64,000 nt of DNA from Kiritimatiellia bacterium (GCA_017463935.1 JAFUEM010000028.1:751-64750), one strand, 5' to 3'; shown: positions 5,450 through 39,601, counted from the stretch's first letter. The notes: generated by a model from the letters alone, not told the origin. Translations and numbers: made by a program.

Positions 5450-5739
5450 ACCGGCACGGCCTCCTTGCAAACACGATGCGCAAAGCCAAGAGACTGCGGC
5501 AGAATCCGAGATGCCACAAGGTCAACTCTGCTGCCAAGCAGTTTTTCATATGCGGATGACATTGCACGTTCATTACGCCAACTATACTCGCCCGGCATCC
5601 ATTTGACAAGAAAATCCACGTCGCTGTCGGGGCGCTCCTCCCTGCGGGCGCACGAGCCGAAGACCCAAAGCTTCTCGGCCTTGTGCCTCCTCGCGATCGC
5701 GTAGATTTCATCCCGCTTCGCGCGTATCTCGTCTAACAT
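5446..5739 (-). CDS. mntA: MntA-like minimal nucleotidyltransferase antitoxin
   Basis: ORF 5446..5751; GSxARxxxxxxSDxD motif (VFGSCARREERPDSDVDFLV). Confidence 0.7.
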   Translation of the reverse strand: MLDEIRAKRDEIYAIARRHKAEKLWVFGSCARREERPDSDVDFLVKWMPGEYSWRNERAMSSAYEKLLGSRVDLVASRILPQSLGFAHRVCKEAVPV

Positions 5740-5764
5740 GCACATTTGCAAGCGCGGATATTAT

Positions 5765-5840
5765 GCCCCAAGAGAAAACAAAGGCATTTTAGCAAAAATC
5801 ATCCTTCCCGTCAATCTGGGGAACGGCGAAAATCGCAGTG
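5765..5840 (-). promoter_or_regulatory. sigma-70 promoter (TTGACG-17-TAAAAT) plus conserved 5'UTR block shared with 41528..41600
   Basis: Minus strand: agaTTGACGggaaggatgatttttgcTAAAATgcctttgttttctcttggggcataatatcc; roughly 80% identical to the region upstream of the GNAT/RHH TA module. Confidence 0.55.
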
Positions 5841-5903
5841 TCGAAGCTGAAAATGGTTGGTTGCGCAGTATGGCCGCGTCCTCAAACCTCAAGGCAGCTG
5901 GCG

Positions 5904-6776
5904 TCAGGTAAATGTCAGCTCGGCTTTCTCCCCGGCTCTGCGTCCTGCGTCGTAGACGCGCTGCATGACAGCCGGGTCGTGGCAGACGCGCGAGATCGGC
6001 AAGGGCTCGTCCGGGGCGATGAGAATGGCCTTGCCGGCCGCGACGCGCGCGTCGATGTAGTCGAGCGCCTTGTTGTACCAGATATGGCGCGTTTTCAGCG
6101 CTTCGTAGATGGCCGGATGATGGCGCAGCAGAGGCTTCAGGACGCACAGGCGCCGGCTCGGGAACTTTCGGTAGCCGCGCGGTCGGGTGGTCACGACGAC
6201 ATTCCGCTCATAACCGAGCGACTCGAAGTACCGGAGCGGAATGCCGTCGGACAGTCCGCCGTCAAGGTACAGTCCGCCGTCGATCGCCACCGGCCGCGCG
6301 ACGACCGGCATGGAGGCCGAGGCACGAATCCAGTCGAACGCGCGCGCGTCGGCCCTGTCGAGTTTCCTGTACACGCTCCGGCCGGTCGCACAGTCGGTGG
6401 CGACGATGTGAAACGCCATCGGATTCGCCTCGAACGCTGCGGAGTCGAACACGTCCAGCTCCATTGGGAGCGTCCGGTAGCAGAACTCCGCGCCGAAGAG
6501 GTCGCCTGTGGTCAGGAGCGACCGCCACGAGCAGTAGCGCGGATCGCGGGCGAACCGCTTGTTGTAGCGGATGACGCGGCCGATCTGCCCCGACTTGTAG
6601 TTGCAGCCGAAGCACGCGCCGGCTGACACGCCGACAAGTCCGTCGAACGTGACGCCGCGCTCCATGAGGACGTCGAGCACGCCGGCCGTGAACAGCCCGC
6701 GCATCCCACCGCCTTCCAGCACAAGTCCGGTCTTCATTCTGCCTGTATCTCCGTTTACGGCCTGTTCTTCCGTCAT
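5904..6776 (-). CDS. patatin-like phospholipase
   Basis: ORF 5904..6872; likely start MTEEQAVNG; GGGMRG oxyanion motif and GVSAG nucleophile elbow. Confidence 0.8.
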   Translation of the reverse strand: MTEEQAVNGDTGRMKTGLVLEGGGMRGLFTAGVLDVLMERGVTFDGLVGVSAGACFGCNYKSGQIGRVIRYNKRFARDPRYCSWRSLLTTGDLFGAEFCYRTLPMELDVFDSAAFEANPMAFHIVATDCATGRSVYRKLDRADARAFDWIRASASMPVVARPVAIDGGLYLDGGLSDGIPLRYFESLGYERNVVVTTRPRGYRKFPSRRLCVLKPLLRHHPAIYEALKTRHIWYNKALDYIDARVAAGKAILIAPDEPLPISRVCHDPAVMQRVYDAGRRAGEKAELTFT

Positions 6777-6789
6777 CTTTTCCTTTGCG

Positions 6790-6900
6790 TTGAACAAGAC
6801 AAGAGATATTATAGCAAATATGCAGCTTGAGAAGTTGAGGCGTGTAGAGACTCTCGGCCTGCCCGCACGCAAGCGCCGCCTTGGATTGCACAGGACGAAC
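6790..6900 (-). repeat. ~100 bp repeat carrying an outward extended -10 promoter (TGcTATAAT), copy 1 of 2
   Basis: About 80% identity to 35640..35745 (tattatagcaaatatgcagcttgagaagttgagg...gcccgcacgcaagc); sits immediately upstream of the patatin start. Confidence 0.5.
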
Positions 6901-11014: not shown

Positions 11015-11332
11015 TTATTTCGCGACGAGCTTCAGGCCGACGATCCCTGCGACGATGAGCGCGGCGGACGCGATTCGCAACGCCGAGGCGGACTCGCCGA
11101 ACAGGGCGATGCCCGCGACGAAACCCCCGACTGCGCCCACGCCCGTCCATACGGCGTATGCCGTTCCCATCGGGATCAATTTCATGGCCACGGCAAGCAG
11201 CCAGACGCTGGCGGCCATCCCGCCCACAAACACCGCGTCTGCCGTGATGTTCTTGAATCCGTTTGACATCTTGAGCGCAACCGCCCAGACGACCTCAAAC
11301 AAGCCCGCGACGATCAGTATAAGCCAGTTCAT
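11015..11332 (-). CDS. sugE: SMR-family small multidrug / quaternary ammonium efflux protein (SugE/EmrE-like)
   Basis: 105 aa, four TM segments; conserved Glu in TM1 (FEVVWA); paralog at 34579..34896. Confidence 0.85.
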   Translation of the reverse strand: MNWLILIVAGLFEVVWAVALKMSNGFKNITADAVFVGGMAASVWLLAVAMKLIPMGTAYAVWTGVGAVGGFVAGIALFGESASALRIASAALIVAGIVGLKLVAK

Positions 11333-11456
11333 TCAACATTCCCTTTTAGTTTCCAGCAGAGCCAGGCGGCGAGCGTCTTTGAGTCGAGAAGATCGACGCT
11401 GATGATCTTCCCCGTGTACTTGCGCTCGGCCGCGAGCGTCTTTTTAGTCAAATCTG

Positions 11457-12279: not shown

Positions 12280-12657
12280 TCAACCGTGGTGGTGGCTTCC
12301 GCATGTGTGTCTTTCCTCGTGGTGATGGTGGTTGCACTTGAAGTCGGCGCGGGGCGCGAGAGTTCCGGCGAGATAGGACTCGACCGCCGCTTTCGCGTCG
12401 CCTGAAACGCCGCCGACTACTTCGACGCCGGCCTCGGCAAGTGCCGCCATCGCGCCGCCGCCGATCCCTCCGCAAATGAGAAGGTCAATCTTGTTCTCAT
12501 CGAGCAGCCCGGCAAGCGCGCCATGCCCGATGCCGCCCGAAGAGACAATCTCGGACGCGACGACCTTGCCGTCCGCAACTTCGCACACCAGGAACTCCGG
12601 CGTGTGGCCGAAGTGCTGGAACACCTCTCCGTTTTCAGAACATACTGCTATTCTCAT
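12280..12657 (-). CDS. NifB/NifX-type dinitrogenase FeMo-cofactor-binding domain protein with His-rich tail
   Basis: MRIAVCSENGEVFQHFGHTPEF... ; C-terminal CNHHHHEERHTCGSHHHG. Confidence 0.7.
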   Translation of the reverse strand: MRIAVCSENGEVFQHFGHTPEFLVCEVADGKVVASEIVSSGGIGHGALAGLLDENKIDLLICGGIGGGAMAALAEAGVEVVGGVSGDAKAAVESYLAGTLAPRADFKCNHHHHEERHTCGSHHHG

Positions 12658-14927: not shown

Positions 14928-15060
14928 AACCCGATTTCGAGCAAAGCGCACTTCGCGCACAAAGCCCGCCACGCCGCCGCGTGCCGGGCTTTTCTTTCCA
15001 TCAGGCATTCAGACCGGCTTCCTGCACCTTGCACCTACCATTGAACACGATGTCTTGAAC

Positions 15061-15200
15061 GCGTTCATCGTAGTTCGCCAGTTGGCTAGACACGTCTCGA
15101 AGTTTCTGTTCGCGAAAGAAACTTTGCAACGCCAGCTACGGCTAGAGTTTGCCCATTTTTTAGCACGGCTCGATTGGCGGGCGAAAAAATGGGCAAACTC
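15061..15200. promoter_or_regulatory. palindrome-dense region upstream of the sigma-54 activator gene
   Basis: 17 bp perfect inverted repeat GAGTTTGCCCATTTTTT / AAAAAATGGGCAAACTC (15145..15161 and 15184..15200, 22 nt spacer); AAGTTTCT...AGAAACTT dyad; direct repeat GCCAGTTGGCTAG / GCCAGCTACGGCTAG. Confidence 0.4.
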
Positions 15201-15236
15201 CAGAATGGCTATTATCTGCCCATAGGTGGCTAATTT

Positions 15237-16796
15237 ATGATATACTATTGGGCGTATGAAAAAGAAGACAAGCACATGGACAATCTCATCCTAACCGGCT
15301 GGGGCTGGAAGGAGTATGCCGTCTCGGCTGCCGTGACGCTGCGGGCGTTGAACGGGCAGGCGGATGTGATGGGCATGAGCAAGCGGAGGCTCCCGGAGTT
15401 CCTTGAGCTCGAAGGACGCGGCTGGAAGCACATCTACCTCATCGGCCTGTCGCTCGGCGGAGACGAGGAGCGACTTGCGGTGGCGTTGAAGTCCCTGCGC
15501 GGAACCAAGGTGACGTGGGTGAGCGCGCTCCCGATGAGCGATGAACAGGAACGTCTGATCGCGCCGCTCCTCGATGTCCGCAAGGTGGACGGCGAACTGT
15601 TCAACGGTTCTCTCGTGAAGGCGGTCGGCCATGTGTTTGATGTCGATGTTGCCGATGTCCTACCGTATGCAGTTGAGGGCGGCAAGGTTCCGAAGTCGGT
15701 GCCGCAGTACCATGAGCTGATCTGCGCCGCCATGTACGCCTATCGAAACTACCGCGACGAGGAGCCGTATGCGCAGGCGATTCGGTATCTTGCGAACGGC
15801 GTCCGAGAGGAAGCGTGGAGCGACAAGGCGCGAAAGCTTGTCGCACATTACCGGCGGTATGGCAATCGCGAGCTAATCGGGAACAGCCAGCAGATGAAGA
15901 ATCTGCGCGAACGCATCAACTTCGTGGCGGCGAATCCGGATGCCCGCGTCCTCATCCTTGGAGAAAGCGGAACGGGCAAGGAGACGGTCGCCTTGCAGAT
16001 TCACAACCGTTCTTCCCGCCGGACAGATCCGTTCTACGCATTTAATTGCGCGAGCGTCGCGCCGCAACTCCTGGAGAGCTGCTTCTTCGGACACGAGAAA
16101 GGATCGTTCACGGGCGCGGACAGGCAGAAGATCGGGCTTTTCGAGCTGGCGAACGGCGGTACGCTCTTTCTCGATGAGATCGGCGAACTGCCGCTGGAGG
16201 CGCAGGGTGTCCTCCTTCGCGTCCTGGAAGAGGGGCGTTTCATGCGTGTTGGCGGTACGGAGGAGATCGAGACGGACGTGCGGCTCATCACGGCGACGAA
16301 CAGAAACCTTCCCTCGCTCGTCCGCGAAGGAAAGTTCCGCGAAGACCTCTTCATGCGGCTCAACGTCGTGCCGCTCCGCATCCCGCCGCTCCGCGAGCGC
16401 CCGGAGGACATCGGCGCAATCGCCGATAACTGGTGGTTCAATCACTTCCGCAAGCACCTTTCAGGCGAGCAGAAGACGGCTCTTGCAGCATACTCCTATC
16501 CCGGCAATGTGCGCGAACTCCTGAATATCCTTGAACGCGCCATCGTGTTCAAGGAGGATGACTTCGCAAAGCTCATCGCCGAGCATCAGGAGTTGAGCGG
16601 CGATCTTTCTGTTGGAGGGGCGGACTTCGTGTCGGACAAGGGAAAAGAGGCGCAAGATGCTGCCGACGTACCCGATGACCTCGATGACGCTATCCGGCGG
16701 CACGTCCATCGCGTATTCGAGAAGTACGCCCGCAACGTCTCGAAAGCGGCCACCGCGCTCAACATCACCCGCACGACTCTCCGTAAGTGGCTGTGA
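15237..16796 (+). CDS. sigma-54-dependent transcriptional activator with ~230 aa non-receiver N-terminal domain
   Basis: AAA+ sigma-54 interaction domain (GESGTGKE Walker A, GAFTGA variant GSFTGA, FLDEIGEL Walker B), C-terminal Fis-type HTH; AGGTGG SD 9 nt before ATG 15237. Confidence 0.85.
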   Translation: MIYYWAYEKEDKHMDNLILTGWGWKEYAVSAAVTLRALNGQADVMGMSKRRLPEFLELEGRGWKHIYLIGLSLGGDEERLAVALKSLRGTKVTWVSALPMSDEQERLIAPLLDVRKVDGELFNGSLVKAVGHVFDVDVADVLPYAVEGGKVPKSVPQYHELICAAMYAYRNYRDEEPYAQAIRYLANGVREEAWSDKARKLVAHYRRYGNRELIGNSQQMKNLRERINFVAANPDARVLILGESGTGKETVALQIHNRSSRRTDPFYAFNCASVAPQLLESCFFGHEKGSFTGADRQKIGLFELANGGTLFLDEIGELPLEAQGVLLRVLEEGRFMRVGGTEEIETDVRLITATNRNLPSLVREGKFREDLFMRLNVVPLRIPPLRERPEDIGAIADNWWFNHFRKHLSGEQKTALAAYSYPGNVRELLNILERAIVFKEDDFAKLIAEHQELSGDLSVGGADFVSDKGKEAQDAADVPDDLDDAIRRHVHRVFEKYARNVSKAATALNITRTTLRKWL

Positions 16797-16843
16797 AAAA
16801 ATAGCCGCAACTGATTAGAAAATAGTCACATTATGGCTACGGA

Positions 16844-16871
16844 ACCCCGCTACGGCGGGGGTTTCTGCTTT
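16844..16871 (+). terminator. intrinsic terminator after the sigma-54 activator gene
   Basis: CCCCGC-tacg-GCGGGG hairpin followed by GTTTCTGCTTT. Confidence 0.55.
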
Positions 16872-16886
16872 GGCATGGATATTGCT
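16871..16886 (+). promoter_or_regulatory. sigma-54 (-24/-12) promoter TGGCATGGATATTGCT
   Basis: Matches TGGCAC-N5-TTGCW with GG and GC 10 nt apart; ~35 nt upstream of ATG 16921. Confidence 0.65.
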
Positions 16887-16920
16887 ATATGGTGGGCAAC
16901 CACATGAAAGGCAATATTCC

Positions 16921-17628
16921 ATGAATGAAAAGAAGATCGAAATCAAGGGACCGAATCTGCCTCTTGACCCAATTGTCGGAGAGACAGACCCAGTGTTTTC
17001 TGAAATCAAGGCGGTGCATGACGCCCTGCTTGCAGAGTTCAAGCGCCTTGACGAGATACGGTCGTCGCAAGTTGAGGGCGCGTCATGGAGTTTGGACAAG
17101 GACAAACGCATCTACTCTGTCGAAGAATACAACGAAATGCTTGCCGCCTACAGAGCCGCCCGCAAAGCGTATGTCGAACGGTACAGGGAGAAGCTTGAGA
17201 CCATTGACATGGTGCGTGAGAAAATCCGCAAACTGCAAGATGAAGAGGAACGCTTCGCCGCCGAGAACGGGTGCAATGAGATTGATGAACCGCCAGATCT
17301 GCCGGACTTCGAGGAGATACCAAACGAGCCCTGGGAGGACTGGTGCAAGCGGCAGAAAGAATATTGGGATCAATTGAGTGCCGCAATGGAGAAGACGCAT
17401 CAACAGATGCAAAAGCAATGCGAGCAGAACAAGTTTTTCGTTCGCCGTCTTGAGGAGATAGGCAAGTTCGGTGAACTTGAATACGAAATGGAATTCCGTC
17501 TTCGTCACACATACATCAACCCCAAGACTGGCGAACAGGAGTATCGTCCTGACGATGACGTTGGCGAGGGCTTGATCTGCGTCGGCTCACGCGACTACAA
17601 CCCAAAGCGAGAGGACTTTGATGATTGA
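16921..17628 (+). CDS. coiled-coil protein, first gene of sigma-54-driven operon
   Basis: 235 aa, highly charged, heptad-rich (EEYNEMLAAYRAARKAYVERYREKLETIDMVREKIRKLQDEEERF); GAAAGG SD. Confidence 0.6.
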   Translation: MNEKKIEIKGPNLPLDPIVGETDPVFSEIKAVHDALLAEFKRLDEIRSSQVEGASWSLDKDKRIYSVEEYNEMLAAYRAARKAYVERYREKLETIDMVREKIRKLQDEEERFAAENGCNEIDEPPDLPDFEEIPNEPWEDWCKRQKEYWDQLSAAMEKTHQQMQKQCEQNKFFVRRLEEIGKFGELEYEMEFRLRHTYINPKTGEQEYRPDDDVGEGLICVGSRDYNPKREDFDD

Positions 17629-19240
17629 TGCGGAGCGATTCTGCCGTCTTGCGGACGCGGCGGCTGACGGTCTCAAGGAGCGAGGCGAGATTGTTGCTGG
17701 TGCGCTCCTCGCCGTGCTGTCCGGCCAGTCCGTGTTCTTCTACGGGCCTCCGGGAACGGCGAAGAGCCTCATCGCACGTCGGCTTTCGGGCTGCTTCAAG
17801 TCATCGGTGTTCTTTGAGTGCCTGATGAACCGCTTTACAACGCCGGAGGAGATATTCGGACCAGTCAGCATCAGGGAACTGAAGACGGAAGATCGCTATG
17901 TCCGCAAGACGGACGGCTTTCTGCCTTCGGCCGACTTCGGCTTTCTCGACGAGATATGGAAGTCTTCGCCAGCCATTTTGAACACGCTTCTGACGATTCT
18001 CAACGAACGAAAGTTTCGCAACGGCGACAAGGTGGAGGATGTTCCGCTAAAGGCCATCGTCGCGGCATCGAACGAGATCCCCCAGCCGGGTCAGGGGCTT
18101 GAGGCGCTTTACGACCGCTTCATCATGCGTTTTGCCGTCCCGCCAGTCAGGACAAGACGCGCCTTTGAATCACTGCTCGGAAGCGGCAGCGTTGGGACAT
18201 CCGTGGACATCGCGGAGGAAGACAAGATTTCAAACGAGGAGTGGGCGGCGCTTGTTGCGGACATTGCCGGGGTCGGCGTGTCGAAGGAGGCGTTGAACGT
18301 CATCCACGCCGTTCGCGTAAAGATTCAGAAGCGGAATGCAGAGAAGCCGGAAAGCCAAATATACGTGTCCGACCGCCGCTGGATGAAAGCCGTCGGCGTT
18401 GCGAAAACTGCGGCGGCGATTTGCGGACGGAAAGCCGTCATGCCTGTTGACACATTGATTATCCCGGATTGTATCTGGTCGAAGGACGATGAACGAGACG
18501 AGGTGCAGAAGATGGTCGATGAGGCGGTTCGGGAGTTTGGAACGCCATCGGCAGAGCGGCTCGATGCGTGGGAAAAGGCATTCTCCGACTTCGAGTCAGC
18601 ATCGGTCAACCGTGCTTTCTGGGACAGGGATGTGTTCAACACGGTCATGGCAGGCAACGTGGAATGCGTCCGCATGACCTCTTCCACGGCATCGGGGCAT
18701 CGGGATGAGTTCTACATACCCGTTTCGCGGATAGGAGCGGGAGGCAGATTTCACCCGTTGTCGAAAGACGGATTGGAAAGAATGGACCTTGAATGTAGTT
18801 GTCATGGCGGAAACGACTTCGGAATCCGTACCGATCCATCCCGCACCCCTCGTTCTTTTTCTGCGCTCGGCATGATGTCCGCGCTGTCTGCATCGGCGAA
18901 ATGGAATCTTGAGAACAACATTGAAAACAACTCCCATCCGTTGATGTCAAGGTTCACACTTTCTCCAATTGCACACGCCGGAGACTGCAAAGACGTCCCG
19001 ACAGACGCACTTGGCGAGGACAGGAAAACTGCGGGGCTGTTCCTCTCCGACATCGTGGCAATCGCGTCTGACTTTGACGCAGATGCATCGTCCGAGGCGG
19101 AGAACTATCCGTTTGTGCCGAAGAAGCGTCTGGCGGCAATCGGCGACGCATATCGGTCGTGTCGACAGCGGGCGGCGAATGACAAGGTGAAATGCGAATA
19201 CCTGATACACCGCCTTGGAACGCACAAGGCGTGGACGTAG
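17621..19240 (+). CDS. MoxR-like AAA+ ATPase with ~220 aa C-terminal extension
   Basis: GPPGTAKS Walker A, FLDEIWKSS Walker B, sensor region consistent with AAA_5/MoxR; overlaps upstream stop (ATGATTGATG). Confidence 0.8.
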   Translation: MIDAERFCRLADAAADGLKERGEIVAGALLAVLSGQSVFFYGPPGTAKSLIARRLSGCFKSSVFFECLMNRFTTPEEIFGPVSIRELKTEDRYVRKTDGFLPSADFGFLDEIWKSSPAILNTLLTILNERKFRNGDKVEDVPLKAIVAASNEIPQPGQGLEALYDRFIMRFAVPPVRTRRAFESLLGSGSVGTSVDIAEEDKISNEEWAALVADIAGVGVSKEALNVIHAVRVKIQKRNAEKPESQIYVSDRRWMKAVGVAKTAAAICGRKAVMPVDTLIIPDCIWSKDDERDEVQKMVDEAVREFGTPSAERLDAWEKAFSDFESASVNRAFWDRDVFNTVMAGNVECVRMTSSTASGHRDEFYIPVSRIGAGGRFHPLSKDGLERMDLECSCHGGNDFGIRTDPSRTPRSFSALGMMSALSASAKWNLENNIENNSHPLMSRFTLSPIAHAGDCKDVPTDALGEDRKTAGLFLSDIVAIASDFDADASSEAENYPFVPKKRLAAIGDAYRSCRQRAANDKVKCEYLIHRLGTHKAWT

Positions 19241-19243
19241 CAC

Positions 19244-20653
19244 GTGGATGCTGGCGAATATATCATCGAACTTCGCGAGACGTTTCCCGACGTTTGGGAA
19301 CCGTCTATAGAGCAACAGTTTTCCGCCGATGTCAAAGCGGCGGTTTCGGCGTGCGCAAAATCCGATCCGTTTGCGGCGGCATTCGCCGTGTTGGAAGCGG
19401 CGGAGCGCGAGTTCGCGGAGAAAGGCGCGGACGATGGACGGTGCTGCCGCGACCGGGAATCGTTTGCAAAGGCGTGTCCTGGCGAGGACGCCGACTTCTG
19501 GCTAGAAGAGCTTTCGGAAAGCGATGACGATGAACGTATCGCTGCCATACACGGCGGGATGCTGCGCCATTGGCGGGCATCGCTTGAGCGCGCCCATGCG
19601 CTGTGGCGAGAGCAGATGGCCTCGGAGCGGATTGCCCGGCTCTATGCCGAATACGTGGAGCGGCTCAAATGCATCAGGAAGCTGCTGTCGGGACTTGCGA
19701 TATTTGGCAAATCGGGCTTAGGCTGGGGGCTTGAGGCTGGCGAACTCGTCAAGCACGATGCGGCAACTCTCCTCTCGTGGCTGCGCAAGATCGAGGGCAA
19801 CCAGGAGCTGAAGCGCCTTTGCGATCTACTCGGACGCCTCATGGCGGCGGAGAAGCGCAAGGAGCGCGAGGAGATTGTCACGACCGTCGAGTATGAAGTG
19901 CCGAAGATCGACACTTCCGTCAAGGAGGAGATTGCCGGGATAACCCTTGGACGCAGCATCGAGGATGTCGTGCCGTCGGAACTGGCCGCCTGCGGCGATC
20001 CAGACCTTGAGACGCTCTTTGACCTGAAGTTCATCGAGGGGCGTCTTATGTGTTTCGATAAATCTGGCGTCCTGTTCGAGAAGCGCACAAAGGACGAGGC
20101 GCAGACGGTTGAACGCGAGACGGCGGATGGGCGCGGCCCGATGATCCTCTGCATTGACACGAGCGGGTCAATGTCCGGCGACCCGGAAGTTGTCGCCAAG
20201 GCCGTGTCGCTCGCCCTCGTCATGCGGGCGCGGCAGGAGAAGCGGAAATGCTATCTCATCAAGTTCAGCACCGGAATCGACGCGCAGAACGTCGGCGATG
20301 GCGCATCGCTCGATGCCATTATCGGCTTTTTGTCGAGTTCCTTTAACAGCGGCACGGACGCAGACCGGGCGCTGAAGGCCGGAATCAAGATGATGGAACA
20401 GAACGACTACCGCAAGGCCGATCTGCTGGTGGTGTCGGATTTCTGCTTTGGCTGGCAACGCAAGAAAATCAGCAAGCGCATTAGAGAGCAAAAGAAATCT
20501 GGCAGCCGCTTCTACGCGGTTATCGTTGATAATGTGGGGTGCGGATGCCATGACAAGCCGCCGTCTGGTTTTGACGGCGTGTGGCGTTTCCGTCCCGGCA
20601 ACTGCTCGCTGACCGCCTTGAAGGAACCAGCGAGGGTGGTAGGCAATGGTTAG
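19244..20653 (+). CDS. von Willebrand factor A domain protein (vWA partner of MoxR ATPase)
   Basis: C-terminal vWA with MIDAS DTSGSMSG; ~280 aa N-terminal unknown region; GTG start 4 nt after MoxR stop. Confidence 0.8.
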   Translation: MDAGEYIIELRETFPDVWEPSIEQQFSADVKAAVSACAKSDPFAAAFAVLEAAEREFAEKGADDGRCCRDRESFAKACPGEDADFWLEELSESDDDERIAAIHGGMLRHWRASLERAHALWREQMASERIARLYAEYVERLKCIRKLLSGLAIFGKSGLGWGLEAGELVKHDAATLLSWLRKIEGNQELKRLCDLLGRLMAAEKRKEREEIVTTVEYEVPKIDTSVKEEIAGITLGRSIEDVVPSELAACGDPDLETLFDLKFIEGRLMCFDKSGVLFEKRTKDEAQTVERETADGRGPMILCIDTSGSMSGDPEVVAKAVSLALVMRARQEKRKCYLIKFSTGIDAQNVGDGASLDAIIGFLSSSFNSGTDADRALKAGIKMMEQNDYRKADLLVVSDFCFGWQRKKISKRIREQKKSGSRFYAVIVDNVGCGCHDKPPSGFDGVWRFRPGNCSLTALKEPARVVGNG

Positions 20654-20738
20654 GGAATATCCATCGTCGTGGCTAAAAAGAATCCACAACCTCCACTTGG
20701 TGGCCAGTTCGTGGGCGATTAAGCACCGATTCCCGTCT

Positions 20739-20754
20739 TGGCATGGATGTTGCT
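20739..20754 (+). promoter_or_regulatory. second sigma-54 promoter TGGCATGGATGTTGCT
   Basis: Near-identical to 16871..16886; ~35 nt upstream of ATG 20789 with the same GAAAGG SD spacing. Confidence 0.65.
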
Positions 20755-20788
20755 ACACCACTGATGAATCATCTGAAAGGTATCAAAC

Positions 20789-21283
20789 ATGAGTACGAAC
20801 ATCAACGCAAAAGAACTGAACTCACGTCTGTGGACGGAGTGGAAGAACGGCATGAAGATCATGGCGGAATCGCTGTTGAAGGATTCCGTCGATATATCCG
20901 GCTCGGGATGCACGATTGTTCTGGGAAACGAAAACTTCATACAACGGGCGGTGATGTATCTTCAGCGCAAGTCCTACATTGGCAAGTTCAAGGATTACAA
21001 GTCGAGAATTTCCGCCTACGAGAAGTCCGTCATAGAACTTGTAGATGAGGTCAACAAGATGATCGCAAGTCCGGCGTCGCAGCCGTGGTACAAGTTCGGC
21101 ACGCCCGCACCGGCAAAAATCGAATACCGCAGTACACTTGACGAGATCATCATCGACGGGGACGACCGTCTGGAGAATACTGAATGGGGCGACCATGCCA
21201 TCGCCGCGTTCGAGAAACTGGGAGACTACTTGAACAACATCATGAACGTCCTCGAATCGGCGCAGAAGGAGATCGGCAAATGA
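20789..21283 (+). CDS. hypothetical protein (164 aa)
   Basis: First ORF after second sigma-54 promoter; no recognisable motif. Confidence 0.55.
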   Translation: MSTNINAKELNSRLWTEWKNGMKIMAESLLKDSVDISGSGCTIVLGNENFIQRAVMYLQRKSYIGKFKDYKSRISAYEKSVIELVDEVNKMIASPASQPWYKFGTPAPAKIEYRSTLDEIIIDGDDRLENTEWGDHAIAAFEKLGDYLNNIMNVLESAQKEIGK

Positions 21284-21366
21284 AAGTCGCTACACGTTTA
21301 GACTAACTCGTGGAATCCGAAAAATGGTATAATATACGGCAAGAAACAAAGCACTCAAAGGCGTTT

Positions 21367-22878
21367 ATGAGATTCAAAGTCTTCATATCCAGTGTACAGC
21401 GTGAATTTGCCGCAGAGCGGCAGATGCTGGCAGAGTATGTCCGCAAGGATGCGCTTTTGGGTAAGTTCTTTGATGTGTTTCTGTTCGAGGAAGAACCCGC
21501 TTGCGATGTTGAGGCGCGTGATTTGTATCTGCCTGAGGTTGAGAAGTCCGACATTTATCTCGGTATTCTCGGAGCGCAATTCGGCAATGCAGATGCGGAA
21601 GGTGTCTCGCCAACAGAACGCGAGTACGATTTGGCGACAATCAAGGGCAAGGAACGCCTTGTCTTTGTGAAGAAATGCGAGCGTGATCCACGCGAGAAAC
21701 GATTCTTGCAGAAGGTGCAATCCGATGTCGTCCGCAAGTCGTTTGAGACGGCCGAAGAACTGCAGCTGGCCGTGTACGCGGCGCTTGTTCGCGTGTTGGA
21801 GAACAAGGGCTATATTCGTGTCGCGCCGTTTGATCTGGCTGTCGATACGGATCTTACGTTAGCCGATGTGGATGACGCGAAAGTTCGTGACTACCTCGCA
21901 CGGGCGAGGGAGGCGAAGAAGATTTCTGTTCCGAAAGATGCAGATGCGGCATGGCTGTTGACGAAGCTTGGCATGATAGTTCCTGACGGACGGCTTACCA
22001 ATGCGGGAGTCCTTTTCTTTGCAAAGCATCCTCAGCAGGCGATTGATATCTCGGTTGTCAAATGTCTTCAGTATTGGGGAACGCATGTTGAGCGTCCAAT
22101 TCCGTCCTATCAGACATACGAGGATGGAATCATCGGCATGATTGAGTCGGCCTTGGCCTTTGTCATGGGGCGCATTGACCGAACCATCGGCATCCCAGAT
22201 GAGCGCGGACTTGCCGCAGCGCAGGACGAACTGCCGCGCATGGCCGTGCGCGAGGCGATTGTCAACGCGGTCTGCCACCGCGATTATGAATCTAACGGGG
22301 CTGTTCAGGTGATGCTCTTCCGTGATCGCCTTGAGATTATGAATCCGGGCACGCTTCCGCGAGGATGGACGGCTGGGACATTGCTGACAACGCATGAGTC
22401 GGTTGCCCGCAACAAGGTGATTGCCAAGGCTCTTGATTGGGCCGGATATGTCGAGCGTTCCGGACATGGCACCGAGTTTATCATCGAAAGATGCGAAGCC
22501 CAAGGACTTGCAACGCCGCAATACAAGCCAGATTCTGCCATTTTCCACACAATCATCTGGCGGAAAACGACGGAATCGGCTGTGTCCCAAGAAGCCTCTT
22601 GTCAAGTGGCCCAGTCAAATGGCCCAGTCGCGGCCCAGTCGTGGCCCAGTCGCGTATTTGATGCAATTTCCGCAGTGGGCGAGGCGTCTACGTCAGATCT
22701 GGCAGCGGCATTGTCCTTGGATAATTCAAGTGGAAGCCTGAAACGTGCTCTGCGGATCTTGCTCGCTGACGGCATTATCGAATACACCATTCCCGAAAAA
22801 CCACGCAGCCGCTTGCAGAAATACCGCCTAACCGAAAAAGGCCGTCAAATGCTAGTGCAGAAAGGAAAGCACAAATGA
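21367..22878 (+). CDS. DUF4062 / AlbA_2 (Schlafen-like) / HATPase_c_4 / wHTH multidomain protein
   Basis: N-terminus FKVFISSVQREFAAERQMLAEYV...DIYLGILGAQFG (DUF4062-like); middle LTNAGVLFFAKHP (AlbA_2-like); REAIVNAVCHRDY...FRDRLEIMNPG (HATPase_c_4 signature); AAAGG SD before ATG 21367. Confidence 0.65.
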   Translation: MRFKVFISSVQREFAAERQMLAEYVRKDALLGKFFDVFLFEEEPACDVEARDLYLPEVEKSDIYLGILGAQFGNADAEGVSPTEREYDLATIKGKERLVFVKKCERDPREKRFLQKVQSDVVRKSFETAEELQLAVYAALVRVLENKGYIRVAPFDLAVDTDLTLADVDDAKVRDYLARAREAKKISVPKDADAAWLLTKLGMIVPDGRLTNAGVLFFAKHPQQAIDISVVKCLQYWGTHVERPIPSYQTYEDGIIGMIESALAFVMGRIDRTIGIPDERGLAAAQDELPRMAVREAIVNAVCHRDYESNGAVQVMLFRDRLEIMNPGTLPRGWTAGTLLTTHESVARNKVIAKALDWAGYVERSGHGTEFIIERCEAQGLATPQYKPDSAIFHTIIWRKTTESAVSQEASCQVAQSNGPVAAQSWPSRVFDAISAVGEASTSDLAAALSLDNSSGSLKRALRILLADGIIEYTIPEKPRSRLQKYRLTEKGRQMLVQKGKHK

Positions 22879-23423
22879 CCGAGAAAGGCAAACTGGCGTT
22901 GCGCAAGCCGCTCGTGCCGGCAAAGCAAAAGCAGAGAAGCGTCAAGAAAAACAATCGCAAGGATTGCAAAAGCAAGCTGTCTCGGACTGTCATATACGGC
23001 ATAACCGATCCCGGCAAGGATGGGCCGGCTATCATGCGGACTATAGCCGACGAGTTGCCGCGCATCCATGATGCCACCGGCGGCAGGATAGACAAGGTCG
23101 TAATTGATTGCCATTATTCCACTCAGGCATCTCTCTCCTCGCCGTTTGAAGTGGATTACGAAAAGACAACAAGTCTGCAAACTGATTTGAAGATAGGCGA
23201 ATTCACAATCCGCACCAACTATCGTAACAGTAAATATGCCGATGAAAATTCTCGCGACATCAAGGCGATATTTGAGGAGTTGAGGCGGCTCCACCATCAA
23301 CTTGGCGACCAGATAAGCGAGATAGATGATGACCCTGAAGACGCCAGCAGCGCATTGGAGGACATCCACGCCGAAATGGAAACGCAATTGGATGCTCTTG
23401 AAGAGGCGCTTGAAGAAGAGTAA
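22875..23423 (+). CDS. hypothetical protein with basic N-terminus and acidic C-terminus
   Basis: Translationally coupled (ATGA overlap) to the preceding gene; 182 aa. Confidence 0.5.
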   Translation: MTEKGKLALRKPLVPAKQKQRSVKKNNRKDCKSKLSRTVIYGITDPGKDGPAIMRTIADELPRIHDATGGRIDKVVIDCHYSTQASLSSPFEVDYEKTTSLQTDLKIGEFTIRTNYRNSKYADENSRDIKAIFEELRRLHHQLGDQISEIDDDPEDASSALEDIHAEMETQLDALEEALEEE

Positions 23424-23538
23424 GCGATGAAACGAAGTTCTCCAAGGCAGGCTCGAAAAAGCGTACCGCAACGGACATATTCCATTGTTGGTGTCTTTAC
23501 TATTAGATTACTCAAGGACATTTATTGGGAATAGTTTC

Positions 23539-24618
23539 ATGGCCTTGACAATTGGTTCATTCAATCTTTGCAATTTCAGTTCAAACGAGGACCGCAAGTT
23601 CCCCAAGGACTATAGTGCGATTGCGAATGCAATTTTAATGTCAGGCGCAGATGTAATTGCGCTTCAAGAGGTTATAGATCAGCAAGCGATAAATAGTTTA
23701 CTGAATCAACTTCGCGGACTTGGAGGCGCGAATCGAGACTGGCGGGGCTTCTTTGATAAGAAGGCGACGTGGCGCAACAATCGTGAGGGATATGCATTTG
23801 TGTGGGACGAAAAATGCGTGACTTTTGCAAAGGACGATGATGGTAATGAGGTGTTGCCCGAATTAGTAACAAAGTTTACCTCAATAAAGCGTCCACCGAT
23901 GGTTGCAAGGTTTGTTACTACGGGATCGGGTGAATTGCACTATGAACTCTGTGTAATAAACACACATATCGTTTTCAAACCAGATGGTTATCAGGCGCGA
24001 CACCCGGAGTGGTATGGAGGTGCTGCGATAAGAGCATTCGAATATTCGAAGATCGTTAACAGTGTTTATCCGCGTTTCAGCAATAAGCACTGTACATACA
24101 CGATTATTGCTGGCGACTATAACTTGAAAAGTTCTATGCTTGCTGTAGTTAATGCTCGTCCTAAGCTATCTAAAGGGCAGCCTACTATGATGTCCGTGCA
24201 AAGCGATAAGACAACAATCAAAACAACAGATTCAATGATTGATGATACATGTGAATCTCAGGGAAGTAAGCCAGATGACATAGGTCTCTTCGCTGCAATT
24301 TATAATGGCGTTATGCGGCTATTCAAGAATGGCGAGTCGATAGGTCGGCCTCCGTCTCAGTTGGCGGATAAACAAGCGCAAACAGAGAATGCAGAAACGC
24401 AGCAACCAACTGCGGATGGCACATATGTTAGTGATTATGATCACTTCAGTTTTGAAGTTGGTCGGGTTGGCGACTATGTGAGAAATGCACATCGCGTTAA
24501 CGCCCCTGAGCTTCTTTATCCAACGCCGAGTCGTATGTTTCATTCCTATAAAGAAGGAGTATCGGATCATGTGCCGATAGCGGCAACACTTGATTTGTCT
24601 GCATCACAGTCATTGTAA
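23539..24618 (+). CDS. endonuclease/exonuclease/phosphatase (EEP, DNase I-like) family protein
   Basis: IALQEV, IIAGDYN and SDHVPI motifs characteristic of the EEP fold; low-GC gene. Confidence 0.7.
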   Translation: MALTIGSFNLCNFSSNEDRKFPKDYSAIANAILMSGADVIALQEVIDQQAINSLLNQLRGLGGANRDWRGFFDKKATWRNNREGYAFVWDEKCVTFAKDDDGNEVLPELVTKFTSIKRPPMVARFVTTGSGELHYELCVINTHIVFKPDGYQARHPEWYGGAAIRAFEYSKIVNSVYPRFSNKHCTYTIIAGDYNLKSSMLAVVNARPKLSKGQPTMMSVQSDKTTIKTTDSMIDDTCESQGSKPDDIGLFAAIYNGVMRLFKNGESIGRPPSQLADKQAQTENAETQQPTADGTYVSDYDHFSFEVGRVGDYVRNAHRVNAPELLYPTPSRMFHSYKEGVSDHVPIAATLDLSASQSL

Positions 24619-24628
24619 GGAGAATAAC

Positions 24629-27469
24629 ATGAACAACATCATTTCCCAGCTATTTTCAAGGAGCGACAGGTCTCGTTCCATAACCAAAATCGACGCATCG
24701 CTCAAGCGAAGCGATGCTAACAAACTCCGAGCGGCAACTGCGCTTAACATGTGCATGGCGTCCGTGTCCGAGATTATCGCCAAGAACAACCTTGTTGCGA
24801 TGGAACATGAATATAATACGATTCTCAATAATCTCAATATGGAGTCTATCATCAAGGATGAGGCTTTGCTTAAGGTTATGAGGAAGTTACTTGACACGAT
24901 TTCGTTCTTCCGCTTGAATGACATGGAGCGCAAGCGCCTTGAAGAGCGTCATGAGCGGAAGATGAGCGGATCCGTTCTGGATAAACTTCTCTCCGGGGGC
25001 ACATCACTCATCGTATGTGTCGGCAATCCAATCGCTCTAGCAACGACTGCTGCTGTAGTTGGAGCAAGTATGTATGCAAACAAGAGGAAGGAGGATGCGA
25101 AAGAGCGGGAGAAGTTTGAGGATAAAATGTGGGAGTTGGAACGTTCGGCAATAGAGCAGCTTCATGCGCTACGTGTCGAGCTATTTGAATGTGCCTGGCG
25201 ACTTTCGGATGCCTACGAATTCAAAGATGAATGGCGGCTTACGGAAAAACAGATTGATTGGTACAATGAGGCAAAGAGCGAATACGATCCATTTCTTCGC
25301 TTTGCAAAACTCAATCAGCGTCGCGAGGATTTTTCGATTTACCCGCAGTATTGGTACGAGCTAGGTTCTGCCGCGCTTGAAATCACACAGTTGCCTGTAA
25401 AGGATGTCGATTGTGAAGATGAAATCAAGAAGGCAAGACATGAAGAGATAATCAAATCCTATCTTGATGAAGCGAAATCATGTTTTGGCAAGTATATCGA
25501 CTGTGACCCGCATCTTCTTCGTCAGGACTTTTTCTCTGCGGATGCGCGTATAAAGTATATTAGCATTGTTAAAGAAGAAACCGGTGGGTGGGCTTCCGCA
25601 CTGTTGGCGGAGGGTGATAAGTTGATGAGCGTTCGCCGTCTTGCATTGGATAATTCCGAATTGTTGCTTAAAGTGGCGATGATCTATGCTGCAGCGTTTA
25701 TTGAGTTAAAAGCAAAGGCCGAGAAAGCTCCTGTCGATGGAAGTGCAGCACTCTCCGATACCGAGAGCGACGTTGTCGCCGACTGGTATAAACAGGCGGT
25801 GGCATGTCTTGAAGTTCTTGTAATGCGCGAGTCAATGCTGCCAGTTAGTTCTGTACTCCTGAGCGCTTTACAGAAGATTAATGATGATAAGGTTGCGTAT
25901 GAGCATATCTGTCGCATAAAAGACAGTGCTCGCAATAATAAGATTATTCTCGTTGACTATGATTCTGAACATAATATCGCAGAGACAGTAAAGAAGACGA
26001 TTGAGGAATATGGTAAGAAATCAGTTGCGTCTATTAAGACGCTTTTCGCTCGGTCTTACGGAATGATTCTTCAGCTTGCAGAACCTGCATTTAATGTGTC
26101 GGAGGATGAGCAACGCAAGGTGCTTCAGAAGTGGGCTTCGGACACCAAGGATTTTCATGTGGGAATGTTGCAGTTGTGGGAGTTGCTTAAAGGCGAATTT
26201 AATACCTTCTTCATCTTTGTCGGAAGAGAGTACGAGAAATGTCCGGCTGCTGACAAACAACTTGAGGAGATAGCTAAAAAGCTTAATGATACTTTCACTA
26301 AGGAAATGGATGTCGATAAGCCTGGGAGACCTGATGAAAAGGCGTCTGCCGTTGTGCGTGTTACGGATCATATCCGCAGAGAGTTTATATCCAAAATGAA
26401 TGATTTTGTCGAGACTTTTAACGGTGATGGTGATGATAAAGTTCCAGCCGAGGAGTTTCGAGGATCGTTGTCGTTCTACATTGATTCTGTGTGTTCTCGT
26501 AAAAGTATCATTAACATAAATAAGGATAGTCGGTCTTATGACGCTTGTCGTCTTGACTATTTTAGAGGAATCGAACCGCAGAGTCTCGAAGAAGACGAAA
26601 CAGACCAGTGGGAGCCATCGCTCTTTGGTGCGGATAGGGAATATACACAAGACGGTTTGGTTTTTGAGTTTACAAAGATTGATCACGCAGAATACATCGA
26701 ACGTCTCATTGATAAGAGATTGTCATATAGAGTTACGTTTAAAGAAGCTTCGTCTCCGTCTGAGTTGCGCAGACTCGTTGAGGAGTGTATGAATCTTCTT
26801 ATATTCAAATATCAAGGCTACAATGCCAGCGTTCGAGATTTGCGGTCTAAAAGGGATTGCGGCGGATTTTGGAAGAAAACAGGCAATTTCTTCGCGAAGT
26901 GTGGCAAAAAGATATACAATATTACAAATAACCGGGATTATATCATTGAGATTTATGATGATCGGATTGATGTGGCATATCAGCGAGTGAACGATAATGA
27001 GTCTGTTATGCCGATTGCGCTTCTTTCGCATCAAGCGCTCGAGCGCGAAGTGAAACGACTGCTTAATTCTTCGATAGGGAAAGGGTCTCCTGAGTATAAT
27101 CGCCTTTGTGAGGCATTCGTTCGAACGATTGACGAAGAATTCACGGAGATGGTCTCTGAATTTGAGACCATTAAGGCCAAGCTTAACGATAAGCAAGTCG
27201 CGAAGCAAAGAGCAAAGATTATGAAGCGTTTTGTGAAAGCCATTGGTGCGTTCTGTAAGAAGGCTAATGGCAGACACCTTTGGGCCGCTAAAGAGCTGAT
27301 GTGTAATCTCCTCGGTGATGTTCATTCGGGGCAACTCAAGCTTGATATCGTGTCTCGGAACGTTATCGATGATAGTAGTCTTACCGCAGCGCAATTAGAA
27401 TTTAAGGACAGATCCGAGATTGGAGAATCTTGTACGAATCCAGTGCCTAAAGATACAGAGACCCTGTGA
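24629..27469 (+). CDS. large (946 aa) hypothetical protein, one predicted hydrophobic segment near residue 130, low-GC composition
   Basis: AAGGAG SD 7 nt before ATG 24629; uninterrupted 2.8 kb ORF in the AT-rich island; no recognisable domain. Confidence 0.7.
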   Translation: MNNIISQLFSRSDRSRSITKIDASLKRSDANKLRAATALNMCMASVSEIIAKNNLVAMEHEYNTILNNLNMESIIKDEALLKVMRKLLDTISFFRLNDMERKRLEERHERKMSGSVLDKLLSGGTSLIVCVGNPIALATTAAVVGASMYANKRKEDAKEREKFEDKMWELERSAIEQLHALRVELFECAWRLSDAYEFKDEWRLTEKQIDWYNEAKSEYDPFLRFAKLNQRREDFSIYPQYWYELGSAALEITQLPVKDVDCEDEIKKARHEEIIKSYLDEAKSCFGKYIDCDPHLLRQDFFSADARIKYISIVKEETGGWASALLAEGDKLMSVRRLALDNSELLLKVAMIYAAAFIELKAKAEKAPVDGSAALSDTESDVVADWYKQAVACLEVLVMRESMLPVSSVLLSALQKINDDKVAYEHICRIKDSARNNKIILVDYDSEHNIAETVKKTIEEYGKKSVASIKTLFARSYGMILQLAEPAFNVSEDEQRKVLQKWASDTKDFHVGMLQLWELLKGEFNTFFIFVGREYEKCPAADKQLEEIAKKLNDTFTKEMDVDKPGRPDEKASAVVRVTDHIRREFISKMNDFVETFNGDGDDKVPAEEFRGSLSFYIDSVCSRKSIININKDSRSYDACRLDYFRGIEPQSLEEDETDQWEPSLFGADREYTQDGLVFEFTKIDHAEYIERLIDKRLSYRVTFKEASSPSELRRLVEECMNLLIFKYQGYNASVRDLRSKRDCGGFWKKTGNFFAKCGKKIYNITNNRDYIIEIYDDRIDVAYQRVNDNESVMPIALLSHQALEREVKRLLNSSIGKGSPEYNRLCEAFVRTIDEEFTEMVSEFETIKAKLNDKQVAKQRAKIMKRFVKAIGAFCKKANGRHLWAAKELMCNLLGDVHSGQLKLDIVSRNVIDDSSLTAAQLEFKDRSEIGESCTNPVPKDTETL

Positions 27470-35745: not shown

Positions 35746-36166
35746 TCTGGCAACAAGCACTTCTCGCTCTTCTCATGGTGAGAGGAGCGGAACGTCACAC
35801 CAACCACAACAGGAGAAATCCACAATGAACGGAAAGATCAACACACCTCGCACCGTGTGCAAGGCCATCGTCGCCGTGGCAATCGCGACAATTAATCACA
35901 GTCGCGGCCATCATCGACTGCTCGTCTCTCGACGGAGGCTCGCGCAAGGCGAACATCGCCACGATCATCCAGACCGCCTACGACATGGTATCCCCGAGCG
36001 AGATTCGCCTGTCGCCGTAGGCGATCAGGTGGGCCGAATGAGCGTAGCGAATGAGCCGCAAAGCGGTCGCAAGGCCCCGCGCGAGGTGCTTTCGCATAGC
36101 GAAAGTCACAAGAGCCCGCGGAAGTGCGCCGATTGCAAGGCCCGCGAGTAGAAGCGTTCCCGCAAA

Positions 36167-36212
36167 GGCGGTCACGTCGTTCTTCGGAGCGGCGTGACCG
36201 CTTTTTTCGTTT
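36167..36212 (+). terminator. strong rho-independent terminator (GGCGGTCACG...CGTGACCGC TTTTTTCGTTTTC)
   Basis: 9-10 bp GC-rich stem with T-run; only on plus strand; no convincing protein gene upstream. Confidence 0.55.
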
Positions 36213-36286
36213 TCGGGACGTTGCGGGGGCGCGAATCAAGCCCCTATCTCACCGTCCGATAATATGCCGTAATACGGCAACCGAAG

Positions 36287-37210: not shown

Positions 37211-37285
37211 GTTTGTTTCAATCTTCTATAACTCATTTGGTGTCTCAGTCAGAAGTCCCAATGCCCTTTGCGAATCATGACCATG

Positions 37286-37975: not shown

Positions 37976-37994
37976 CTAGAAATCTCCTTTGGAG

Positions 37995-38369: not shown

Positions 38370-38372
38370 ACT

Positions 38373-38600: not shown

Positions 38601-38608
38601 CTGCCCCC

Positions 38609-38806: not shown

Positions 38807-38807
38807 G

Positions 38808-39557: not shown

Positions 39558-39601
39558 GTCGGGATCTCCATTATGGTTACTTGATAGAGTTGTTCACTTA
39601 G

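Follow-up and report, generated by a model that had tools for sequence, protein, structure and literature searches.

The locus described here raises the question of what a sigma-54-dependent activator with an unusual sensor controls when it is followed by two sigma-54 promoters and eight further genes. It occupies positions 15237 to 27469 of a 64,000-nucleotide (nt) stretch of DNA, hereafter called the window (GCA_017463935.1, JAFUEM010000028.1:751-64750), from a ruminant-gut Kiritimatiellae bacterium represented by an uncultured metagenome-assembled genome (MAG). The identical gene string is present on three metagenome contigs, and the independent gene calls on metagenome contigs concur with the open reading frame (ORF) coordinates of an earlier note on this DNA (the initial annotation), which were correct. 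All nine genes, the activator and g1 to g8, are located on the + strand, with overlaps or spacings of ≤10 nt in the pairs g1/g2, g2/g3, g5/g6, and g7/g8. On balance, as the explanation of the locus we favor a conflict island on the chromosome, gated at the level of transcription and most likely directed against phages. The initial annotation had also proposed a conflict or defense locus, and this part of the proposal is supported by the unusual-sensor activator standing beside two sigma-54 promoters that share sequence and upstream hexamers, as well as by defense-like neighbors, while the ternary conflict system that it had suggested as the architecture was not borne out. The features of the locus are as follows.

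15206-15211 and 15227-15232, + strand: two TGGCTA hexamers, 21 nt apart, 5′ of the activator gene
15237-16796, + strand: activator ORF (open from 15237), likely start at 15276
16802-16839, + strand: candidate upstream activating sequence (UAS) of P1, with TAGCCGC (16802), TAGTCAC (16823), and TGGCTA (16834)
16845-16870, + strand: intrinsic-terminator-like hairpin CCCCGC-tacg-GCGGGG (16845-16860) and T-run, between the UAS and P1 and abutting P1
16871-16886, + strand: sigma-54 promoter P1, TGGCATGGATATTGCT
16921-17628, + strand: g1, 235 amino acids (aa), charged, without a family match
17621-19240, + strand: g2, 539-aa RavA-like MoxR AAA+ ATPase
19244-20653, + strand: g3, 469-aa ViaA-like vWA protein
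20647-20706, + strand: UAS-like hexamers 5′ of P2, TGGTTA (20647), GTGGCTA (20669), and GTGGCCA (20700)
20739-20754, + strand: sigma-54 promoter P2, TGGCATGGATGTTGCT
20789-21283, + strand: g4, 164-aa helical-bundle protein without a family match
21325-21333, + strand: extended −10-like element TGgTATAAT, a perfect match, in the g4–g5 spacer
21367-22878, + strand: g5, 503 aa, DUF4062, middle region, HATPase_c_4, and winged helix–turn–helix (wHTH)
22875-23423, + strand: g6, 182 aa, without a family match
23539-24618, + strand: g7, 359-aa EEP (DNase I-like) nuclease-family protein
24629-27469, + strand: g8, 946 aa, member of a large uncharacterized family

The two near-identical −24/−12 promoters proposed in the initial annotation hold by sequence, by spacing, and by the count of a strict pattern. 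P1 and P2 occupy the only two sizeable intergenic gaps 5′ of g1 and g4, and an 18-nt repeat, TTGGCATGGATNTTGCTA, is located at P2. Both promoters lie 50 nt 5′ of an ATG (16921 and 20789), in agreement with the equal spacing claimed for them, and TGAAAGG is found 34 nt (P1) and 35 nt (P2) downstream of TGGCA. The strict pattern, TGGCA[CT]N5TTGC[ATC], matched the 64-kb window twice versus 0.18 matches expected, and two or more matches were obtained in none of 200 Markov simulations. The looser count in the window with one mismatch allowed, two versus 2.3 expected, was by itself not significant. No further sigma-54 promoters were seen in the g4–g5 and g6–g7 gaps.

The terminator noted ahead of P1 was also recovered, as a GC hairpin with a T-run that is the best terminator-like site of the region, and many loci of the activator family carry a hairpin of other sequence at the same position. 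The UAS module of P1 is kept in the related loci L008, L009, L010, L014, L016, and L018. Sites of the form TAG[CT]CAC/GTGRCTA occur five times in the 64-kb window, with three of the five located in the three regulatory regions of the locus. The TGGCTA pair at 15206–15232 consists of candidate autoregulatory binding sites and marks where the conserved unit begins on the left; DNA homology to L009, L010, and L014 begins at 15202–15214. A 26-nt inverted repeat at 15142–15203 (CTAGAGTTTGCCCATTTTTTAGCACG / CGGGCGAAAAAATGGGCAAACTCCAG, 88% complementary, 10-nt loop) stops exactly where the homology to other activator loci starts, and its role could be that of a terminator, insulator, or recombination boundary.

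The same promoter organization was found across the activator family. This family, defined by the N-terminal domain (N-domain) of the activator, has at least 106 loci in the genome collection, nearly all of them in Kiritimatiellia, Lentisphaeria, or Victivallales gut MAGs and a few in MAGs with other bin labels, and there are often two or three copies per MAG. The N-domains of L007–L011 are 96–99% identical to that of the window. In the 1.17 Mb of family loci the strict sigma-54 motif was present 89 times versus 3.85 expected, with 78 occurrences on the strand of the activator and 11 on the opposite strand. Many of the family promoters share an architecture in which two to three hexamer repeats, at about −75 to −35 from TGGCA, are followed by a hairpin and the −24/−12 element, and 7-mers of the TGGTCA/TGACCA type are 13- to 15-fold enriched upstream of family promoters. 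The type of hexamer tracks the recognition helix of the helix–turn–helix (HTH) domain of the activator, as ITRTTLRKWL occurs with TAGCCA/TGGCTA, ISRNTLRKYVQ with TGACCA, and VARNTVRKYL with TGAACA. This co-variation provides in silico evidence that the repeats are the binding sites of the activator.

Some loci of the family differ in how the promoter is placed. In the Lentisphaeria/Victivallales clade a sigma-54 promoter is located 5′ of the activator gene or of an operon composed of an RNase_T exonuclease gene and the activator gene (L061 5097, L065 9885, L067 272, L071 4883, L074 6592, L078 9049, L079 9355), which implies positive autoregulation there. In L010 (7555–7590) and L011 (12515–12550), the ATG of g4 is just 27 nt from the sigma-54 TGGCA, approximately at the predicted transcription start, which suggests that the g4 mRNA is essentially leaderless in these loci. 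Degenerate short repeats (GGTCTCAG / GTCTTAG / GTCCTAG and similar) were observed in L011 (~12300–12420), L012 (~11330–11420), and L035 (~3300–3390), just 5′ of the UAS–promoter module and 3′ of a gene for a four-helix bundle of the 23S_rRNA_IVP type.

The identity of the protein encoded at 15237–16796 as a sigma-54 activator agrees with its match to PF00158 (Sigma54_activat; 3.2e-66, residues 213–380), and the GSFTGA loop, Walker A (GESGTGKE), and Walker B (LFLDEIGE) motifs were read in its translation. The C-terminal HTH contains ..ITRTTLRKWL, and its match to HTH_8 is weak (E 0.0088). The best PADLOC match of the AAA+/HTH part is RtcR_PspF2 (3.3e-99, with the alignment reaching model position 475 of 481), and the match to NCBIfam RtcR has an E-value of 7.8e-85. 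The protein probably starts at ATG 15276 (M14) rather than at 15237, because nearly all homologues begin with MD(N/T)LILTGWGW.

The N-terminal 200 residues matched no Pfam, NCBIfam, or PADLOC model, and the initial annotation had described this part as unassigned and free of a receiver domain. That it contains no receiver domain still stands, but a DHH-like fold of ~200 aa can now be assigned to it. The AlphaFold model of the N-domain, built from 13 homologues (pLDDT 91), resembles the DHH domains of RecJ, Cdc45, and PAP phosphatase, with a top Foldseek match of E 9e-5 and TMq 0.54. A CARF identity was considered and rejected, as the PADLOC CARF_AAA_HTH (RtcR/PspF) models cover the AAA+/HTH part alone. 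A receiver identity was likewise rejected, as the similarity to CheY-like receivers is confined to the alpha/beta half and the N-domain lacks the acidic pocket. The fold is shared with DHH-family proteins (RecJ, NrnA/PAP phosphatase, Cdc45), while the activator differs from them in its fusion to a sigma-54 AAA+ module and in two absences. The DHH metal-binding motifs I–IV (DxD, D, DHH, D) are missing from the invariant columns of the N-domain, where no conserved His/Asp set was found, and there is no DHHA1 domain (GGGH), with the AAA+ domain beginning directly after about residue 205.

The invariant columns of the N-domain include L4, T7, G8, G10, Y14, A19, G33, S35, L39, P40, G57, L60, W81, and S83. 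In the model, T7, G8, G10, and Y14, then G33 and S35 with R37 and R38, then G57, L60, G62, and D63, and finally W81 and S83 are placed on the loops after strands 1–4, so that the conserved motifs LTGWGW, GMSKRRLPE, GxSLGGD, and WxS appear on the loops that leave the beta-strands at their C-terminal ends. The active site of DHH enzymes occupies this same position. From the modeled positions we infer that the N-domain could form a ligand-binding pocket in a catalytically dead DHH-like enzyme. In the literature, no paper was found on sigma-54 activators with DHH domains.

The DNA comparisons showed that the locus is a mosaic. The locus L094, from another genome and with other flanks, is collinear with window positions 15229–21363 at 90.5%, and the homology ends 4 nt before the ATG of g5; beyond this breakpoint L094 contains a different EEP gene (445 aa) and then a g8-like gene (863 aa). 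Thus, the block of activator, g1, MoxR–vWA pair, and g4 recurs at another chromosomal site with 91–95% identity. In L010 and L091–L093, the homology is divided into segments corresponding to window positions 15214–16898, 20805–21283, 21296–21363, 22598–22652, and 22846–23475. These loci have P1 fused to g4 itself and lack g1, the MoxR–vWA pair, and P2; an AlbA_2/HATPase_c_4 protein takes the place of g5, g6 is kept at 87% identity, and the EEP and g8-like genes are just 28–31% identical to those of the window. The g4–g5 spacer (21296–21363) is kept as DNA in L010 (81%) and in L094 despite the different downstream gene.

In L009, g1 is retained and a DUF932 gene stands before g4 in place of the MoxR–vWA–P2 segment. 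In L007, a divergent MoxR–vWA pair (41–43% identical) is located upstream of the activator and is preceded by a putative Macro gene, recognized by sequence motifs rather than by a hidden Markov model (HMM) match. The MoxR–vWA block is bounded in the window by the two near-identical promoter copies and is absent from most relatives, while g1 is 89–95% identical in L008, L009, and L094 and leads the cassette. The activator, the promoter module, g1, g4, the g4–g5 spacer, and g6 are therefore conserved bookends, between which the effector genes are exchanged among strains. The constant core within the activator clade of the window consists of the activator and g4.

The neighborhoods of the family were compared by clustering ~1,300 ORFs from 83 sequences (82 loci and the window region). 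Almost no cluster was large except that of the activator, so that the gene content is hypervariable, and the recurrent neighbors are of defense-like types. They include an RNase_T DEDDh exonuclease that matches the PADLOC models for cas-associated DEDDh and PDC-S48, a pair of GmrSD_N proteins (HEC-06/SspE/Orf5), a double-AAA protein (IetA, 5e-40), a DrmC-like PLD nuclease, and a RhuM+Fic protein (PDC-S23, 1e-124), together with SIR2, DUF1232, DUF932, and LeoA-like pairs of dynamin-like proteins. Another cluster (C18) is a putative Macro domain, read by eye from sequence motifs and not from an HMM match. In L008 (~15000–20206) and L018 (12541–16957), small g1-like proteins precede pairs of dynamin-like GTPases (Dynamin_N, weak LeoA match) behind family sigma-54 promoters. 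Since g1-like genes are also found before dynamin-like pairs, g1-type genes seem to lead several different cassettes.

Among the genes behind P2, g4 is the most constant sigma-54 target within the activator clade of the window. Its family has 126 clusters with 53–96% identity and invariant GNENF, IIDGDD, and WGDHA motifs, and its structure is predicted to be a three-helix bundle, for which the structural comparison gave no informative neighbor. For g5, the DUF4062, HATPase_c_4, and wHTH domains of the initial annotation were found again, while AlbA_2 was not detectable by Pfam. The DUF4062 match is well above the cutoff (PF13271, 2.4e-18, 66.6 versus 24.7 bits), and the comparison with the solved KpSwz domain (PDB) gave 5.7e-7. 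DUF4062 is described in two reports as the TIR-like NADase domain of the Swarozyc and Evangelion anti-phage systems (10.64898/2026.05.01.722283; 10.64898/2026.06.25.731849). The g5 segment sptEreyDlA aligns with sfTEkafDyA of KpSwz (an S/T-E motif), and the text consulted speaks of a conserved Glu with no KpSwz residue number.

Because the similarity of g5 to the L091 protein with AlbA_2 and HATPase_c_4 sets in only at residue 153, DUF4062 appears to have replaced AlbA_2 in g5. An N-terminal DUF4062 is common to g5 and the Swarozyc and Evangelion proteins. In contrast to these, the auxiliary part of g5 consists of HATPase_c_4 and wHTH inherited from AlbA_2/HATPase_c_4 proteins, and g5 lies within a sigma-54 operon instead of being a stand-alone gene.

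The assignment of g7 as an EEP nuclease agrees with its match to Exo_endo_phos (3.1e-7, 30.8 versus a cutoff of 24.5 bits) and to the MnuA family (2.5e-13), and GSFNL, LQE, GDYN, and SDHVP motifs were read in its translation. On the other hand, the description of g8 as a 946-aa orphan was not tenable, as searches returned 918 cluster representatives with the threshold at E≤1e-3, or 313 with it at ≤1e-30. The family has a conserved N-domain of ~290 aa (about aa 25–320) and no Pfam, PDB, or PADLOC match; a Pfam search of 10 homologues gave an occasional C-terminal DUF697 alone. In every context examined (the window, L010/L091, L094, L087, L088, L096, and L097), the g8 gene is located directly 3′ of a gene of 305–445 aa, which has an EEP Pfam match or aligns to g7 in all contexts but L097, where the gene had no Pfam match and was not compared with g7. 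In L087, the preceding gene is 31% identical to g7 (E 5e-48). The module spans 23539–27469 in the window, 2974–6845 in L087, 6968–10550 in L088, 5024–8373 in L096, 4962–9360 in L097, and 9677–13617 in L094, with g8-family genes of 740–1120 aa. WYL regulators and other defense-type genes are located near it in L088, L096, and L097, three contexts from other phyla. Hence, EEP–g8 is a self-contained two-gene module that is also present in other phyla, and it may be an unnamed defense system in its own right. In the literature, no paper was found on EEP-based defense systems.

The genes behind P1 begin with g1, described as coiled-coil in the initial annotation; it had no Pfam, NCBIfam, PHROG, or significant PADLOC match. 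The annotation of g2 as a MoxR AAA+ protein agrees with its matches to bpMoxR (PF20030, 6.7e-49), AAA_5, and AAA_lid_8 (4.7e-20), and its C-terminal extension without a match measures ~240 aa, close to the 220 aa given before. The match of g2 to NCBIfam RavA (4e-93) reaches 313 bits versus a cutoff of 681 and covers model positions 8–302 of 498 alone. The comparison with RavA in the PDB (2.7e-76) covers g2 residues 4–301 and RavA residues 8–300, which correspond to the AAA+ and lid regions, and the C-terminal triple-helix/LARA region of RavA is unmatched in g2. The g3 gene starts 4 nt past the g2 stop codon, and its product matches NCBIfam ViaA (2.5e-63, 215 bits versus a cutoff of 500, model positions 124–476 of 487). 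As had been claimed, g3 carries a vWA domain with a metal ion-dependent adhesion site (MIDAS), namely a C-terminal VWA_CoxE/VWA_2 domain with an intact DxSxS motif (DTSGS). The pair thus resembles E. coli RavA–ViaA in the adjacency of MoxR AAA+ and vWA genes, while it differs in scoring below the equivalog cutoffs, in being sigma-54-driven, and in following g1 in a variable island.

The flanks of the locus encode ordinary metabolism, with a flavin reductase gene upstream and, on the downstream side, genes for a Na/Pi cotransporter and a histidine kinase. The low GC content noted before was found again as 42–47% over 23–27.5 kb (g6–g8) versus ~58% elsewhere. An origin of the window copy from a phage or plasmid was considered and rejected, as the activator N-domain and g4 had no relatives in IMG/VR, there were no tRNA genes in the window, and no integrase was found among the flanking genes scanned. 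The N-domain of g8 also had no match in plasmid or phage collections. Elsewhere in the window, a second low-GC stretch is present on the minus strand at 36000–41000 (41–50% versus ~58%); it encodes an ankyrin-repeat protein (37286–37975) and several ORFs unmatched in Pfam, and it could represent a further acquired island. A HepT-like/nucleotidyltransferase (MNT) toxin–antitoxin pair adjoins a patatin-like phospholipase with DUF6363 at window positions ~5237–6872 (L001 1–1540).

The initial annotation had further held that the locus is not a named system. A PADLOC search gave no match for g1–g4 and g6–g8 and domain-level matches only for g5, and no named defense system therefore fits. However, RtcR-like CARF sigma-54 activators have already been predicted to head Type II CoCoNuT defense superoperons (Bell et al. 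2024; PMC11090510), and with this precedent the locus is less unprecedented than had been supposed. In both the RtcR/CoCoNuT loci (PMC11090510) and the window, a Rossmann-like sensor takes the place of a receiver at the N-terminus of the sigma-54 activator, whose gene is located 5′ of a string of defense-type genes on the same strand, while the activator of the window, different from RtcR, has no N-terminal CARF domain. In the literature, no paper was found on sigma-54 activators with anti-phage function. A second comparison is offered by PspF–PspA, where, as here, the activator is followed by a sigma-54 promoter and a first gene for a small nonenzymatic protein (g1 or g4). By this analogy, g1 or g4 might exert feedback on the activator, which is pure speculation; no PspA/IM30 homology was found in the Pfam and NCBIfam searches, and PspF has no sensor domain, while the activator of the window has one. 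New in the window are the sensor domain, g4 as a conserved partner, a promoter module that is portable, the set of cargo genes, and the widespread unnamed EEP–g8 module.

If the locus is a conflict island, the pocket of the dead DHH-like domain would bind a nucleotide- or nucleic-acid-derived signal arising from infection or nucleic-acid damage, and binding of this ligand would relieve the repression of the AAA+ ring. Upon such induction, the activator would directly control both −24/−12 promoters by binding the TAGCCAC/TGGCTA repeats 35–70 nt upstream of them and opening them. Because the hairpin between the UAS and P1 would block read-through, P1 expression should depend on sigma-54. P1 would drive g1 and the RavA/ViaA-like AAA+/vWA pair, which could serve as an accessory remodeler, and P2 would drive g4, the DUF4062 protein g5, g6, the EEP nuclease g7, and g8. 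The defense phenotype would then result from action of the cargo against phage, with g5 depleting NAD+ and g7, together with g8, degrading DNA.

Several observations weigh against this interpretation. P2 has no GC hairpin, and the hexamers upstream of it are less regular than those of P1. The TGgTATAAT element (21325–21333) may be an internal sigma-70 promoter, which would allow activator-independent expression of g5–g8. The rpoN gene was not found in any sequence examined, and the presence of sigma-54 in the host organism is assumed. The Foldseek support for the DHH-like fold is moderate, with receivers also matching the alpha/beta half, and a DHH domain on its own, with no DHHA1, is no established ligand binder. 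Among the window proteins, the AAA+ part of the activator and g5 alone gave meaningful PADLOC E-values. The conservation of g4 (74–96%) is far above that of typical defense specificity factors. The E. coli RavA/ViaA homologues are not known to be defense proteins. Finally, the organisms are uncultured MAGs.

The chief rival to the conflict island is a regulon for nucleic-acid damage or stress repair like RtcR–RtcBA, in which the DHH-like domain would sense damaged RNA/DNA ends or nanoRNAs and induce clean-up or repair nucleases, exonucleases, and remodeling ATPases. It would agree with the closeness of the AAA+/HTH part to RtcR/PspF-type models, including NCBIfam RtcR, with the strong conservation of g4 and the activator, which resembles that of housekeeping partners, and with the Lentisphaeria clade, where the activator and an RNase_T DEDDh exonuclease are co-transcribed and a sigma-54 promoter precedes them. 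Short oligonucleotides are handled by both DHH (NrnA, RecJ) and DEDDh (Orn) enzymes, which also counts in its favor. We nevertheless regard it as unlikely, as the cargo is swapped between strains with activators 91–97% identical, which is unusual for a repair pathway, and it belongs mostly to defense-island families, including a NADase domain, while the Pfam and NCBIfam searches of the window gave no ligase, cyclase, or other repair enzyme.

The MoxR–vWA pair gives rise to two further explanations. The locus could consist of two independent operons, if a g1–RavA–ViaA chaperone module, serving for example in membrane or metallo-enzyme maturation as proposed for E. coli RavA–ViaA and CoxD–CoxE, had landed beside an unrelated defense cassette and copied its promoter. 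The homology of g2 and g3 to RavA and ViaA and the lack of PADLOC matches for both would fit, as would the absence of the block from most relatives, in which the promoter is fused straight to g4, and the near-identical promoter copies flanking the block are consistent with recombinational insertion or deletion. This course of events seems distinctly improbable to us, because a second chromosomal location carries the block together with the activator and g4 (91–95% identity), the block stands behind a sigma-54 promoter with the UAS module of the activator, and a divergent pair adjoins another family activator in L007, after the putative Macro gene; in addition, the LARA region of RavA is unmatched and both scores are under the equivalog cutoffs. 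The other explanation is the NTP-dependent ternary conflict system of the initial annotation, centered on MoxR–vWA, in which g1 would be the third component and the nuclease set would supply the effectors. Such systems have a MoxR and vWA core pair near putative effectors, and they need a VMAP, iSTAND, FtsH-type double AAA+, or beta-propeller third component and effector/EAD fusions (Kaur, Burroughs, Iyer, Aravind 2020; PMC7159879). The core pair near effector-like genes is present here too, with an intact MIDAS in the vWA protein, and the best Pfam match of g2, bpMoxR, is a model built from ternary systems. However, the defining third components, vWA-fused effectors, and EAD adaptors are absent, nothing follows the vWA domain, which is C-terminal in g3, and the RavA and ViaA models give better scores for g2 and g3 and span more of both. 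The pair is also dispensable, since g1 stays when DUF932 replaces MoxR–vWA, and in most relatives the supposed effector operon is present without the pair. This explanation is therefore very unlikely, and by its sequence matches the pair is RavA/ViaA-like, optional, and not part of a ternary system of the kind described by these authors.

A broader form of the conflict-island reading, which we offer as a tentative and rather doubtful possibility, is that the family forms an integron-like platform for the exchange and expression of immune genes. One nucleic-acid-sensing activator would act through portable UAS–terminator–promoter modules, g1, g4, and g6 would be the bookends, and the effector cassettes swapped by recombination would be the RavA/ViaA-like pair, DUF932, the dynamin-like pairs, NADase or Schlafen-type proteins, and the EEP–g8 pair. 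On the same tentative footing, g4 would be an obligate cofactor or feedback partner and EEP–g8 an unnamed widespread defense system.

If the locus is indeed a conflict island, it would be a second, independent example of sigma-54-gated bacterial immunity after the predicted RtcR/CARF–CoCoNuT. In the absence of their activator, sigma-54 promoters stay essentially silent, a property well suited to toxic effectors. The dead DHH domain would be a new sensor domain, and its ligand would reveal a signal of infection or damage. The large uncharacterized module of an EEP nuclease and the g8 family, with its 918 cluster representatives across phyla, would be exposed as well. More than 100 variable islands in abundant uncultured gut bacteria of the Planctomycetes–Verrucomicrobia–Chlamydiae (PVC) group would then become sites in which new defense genes could be mined.

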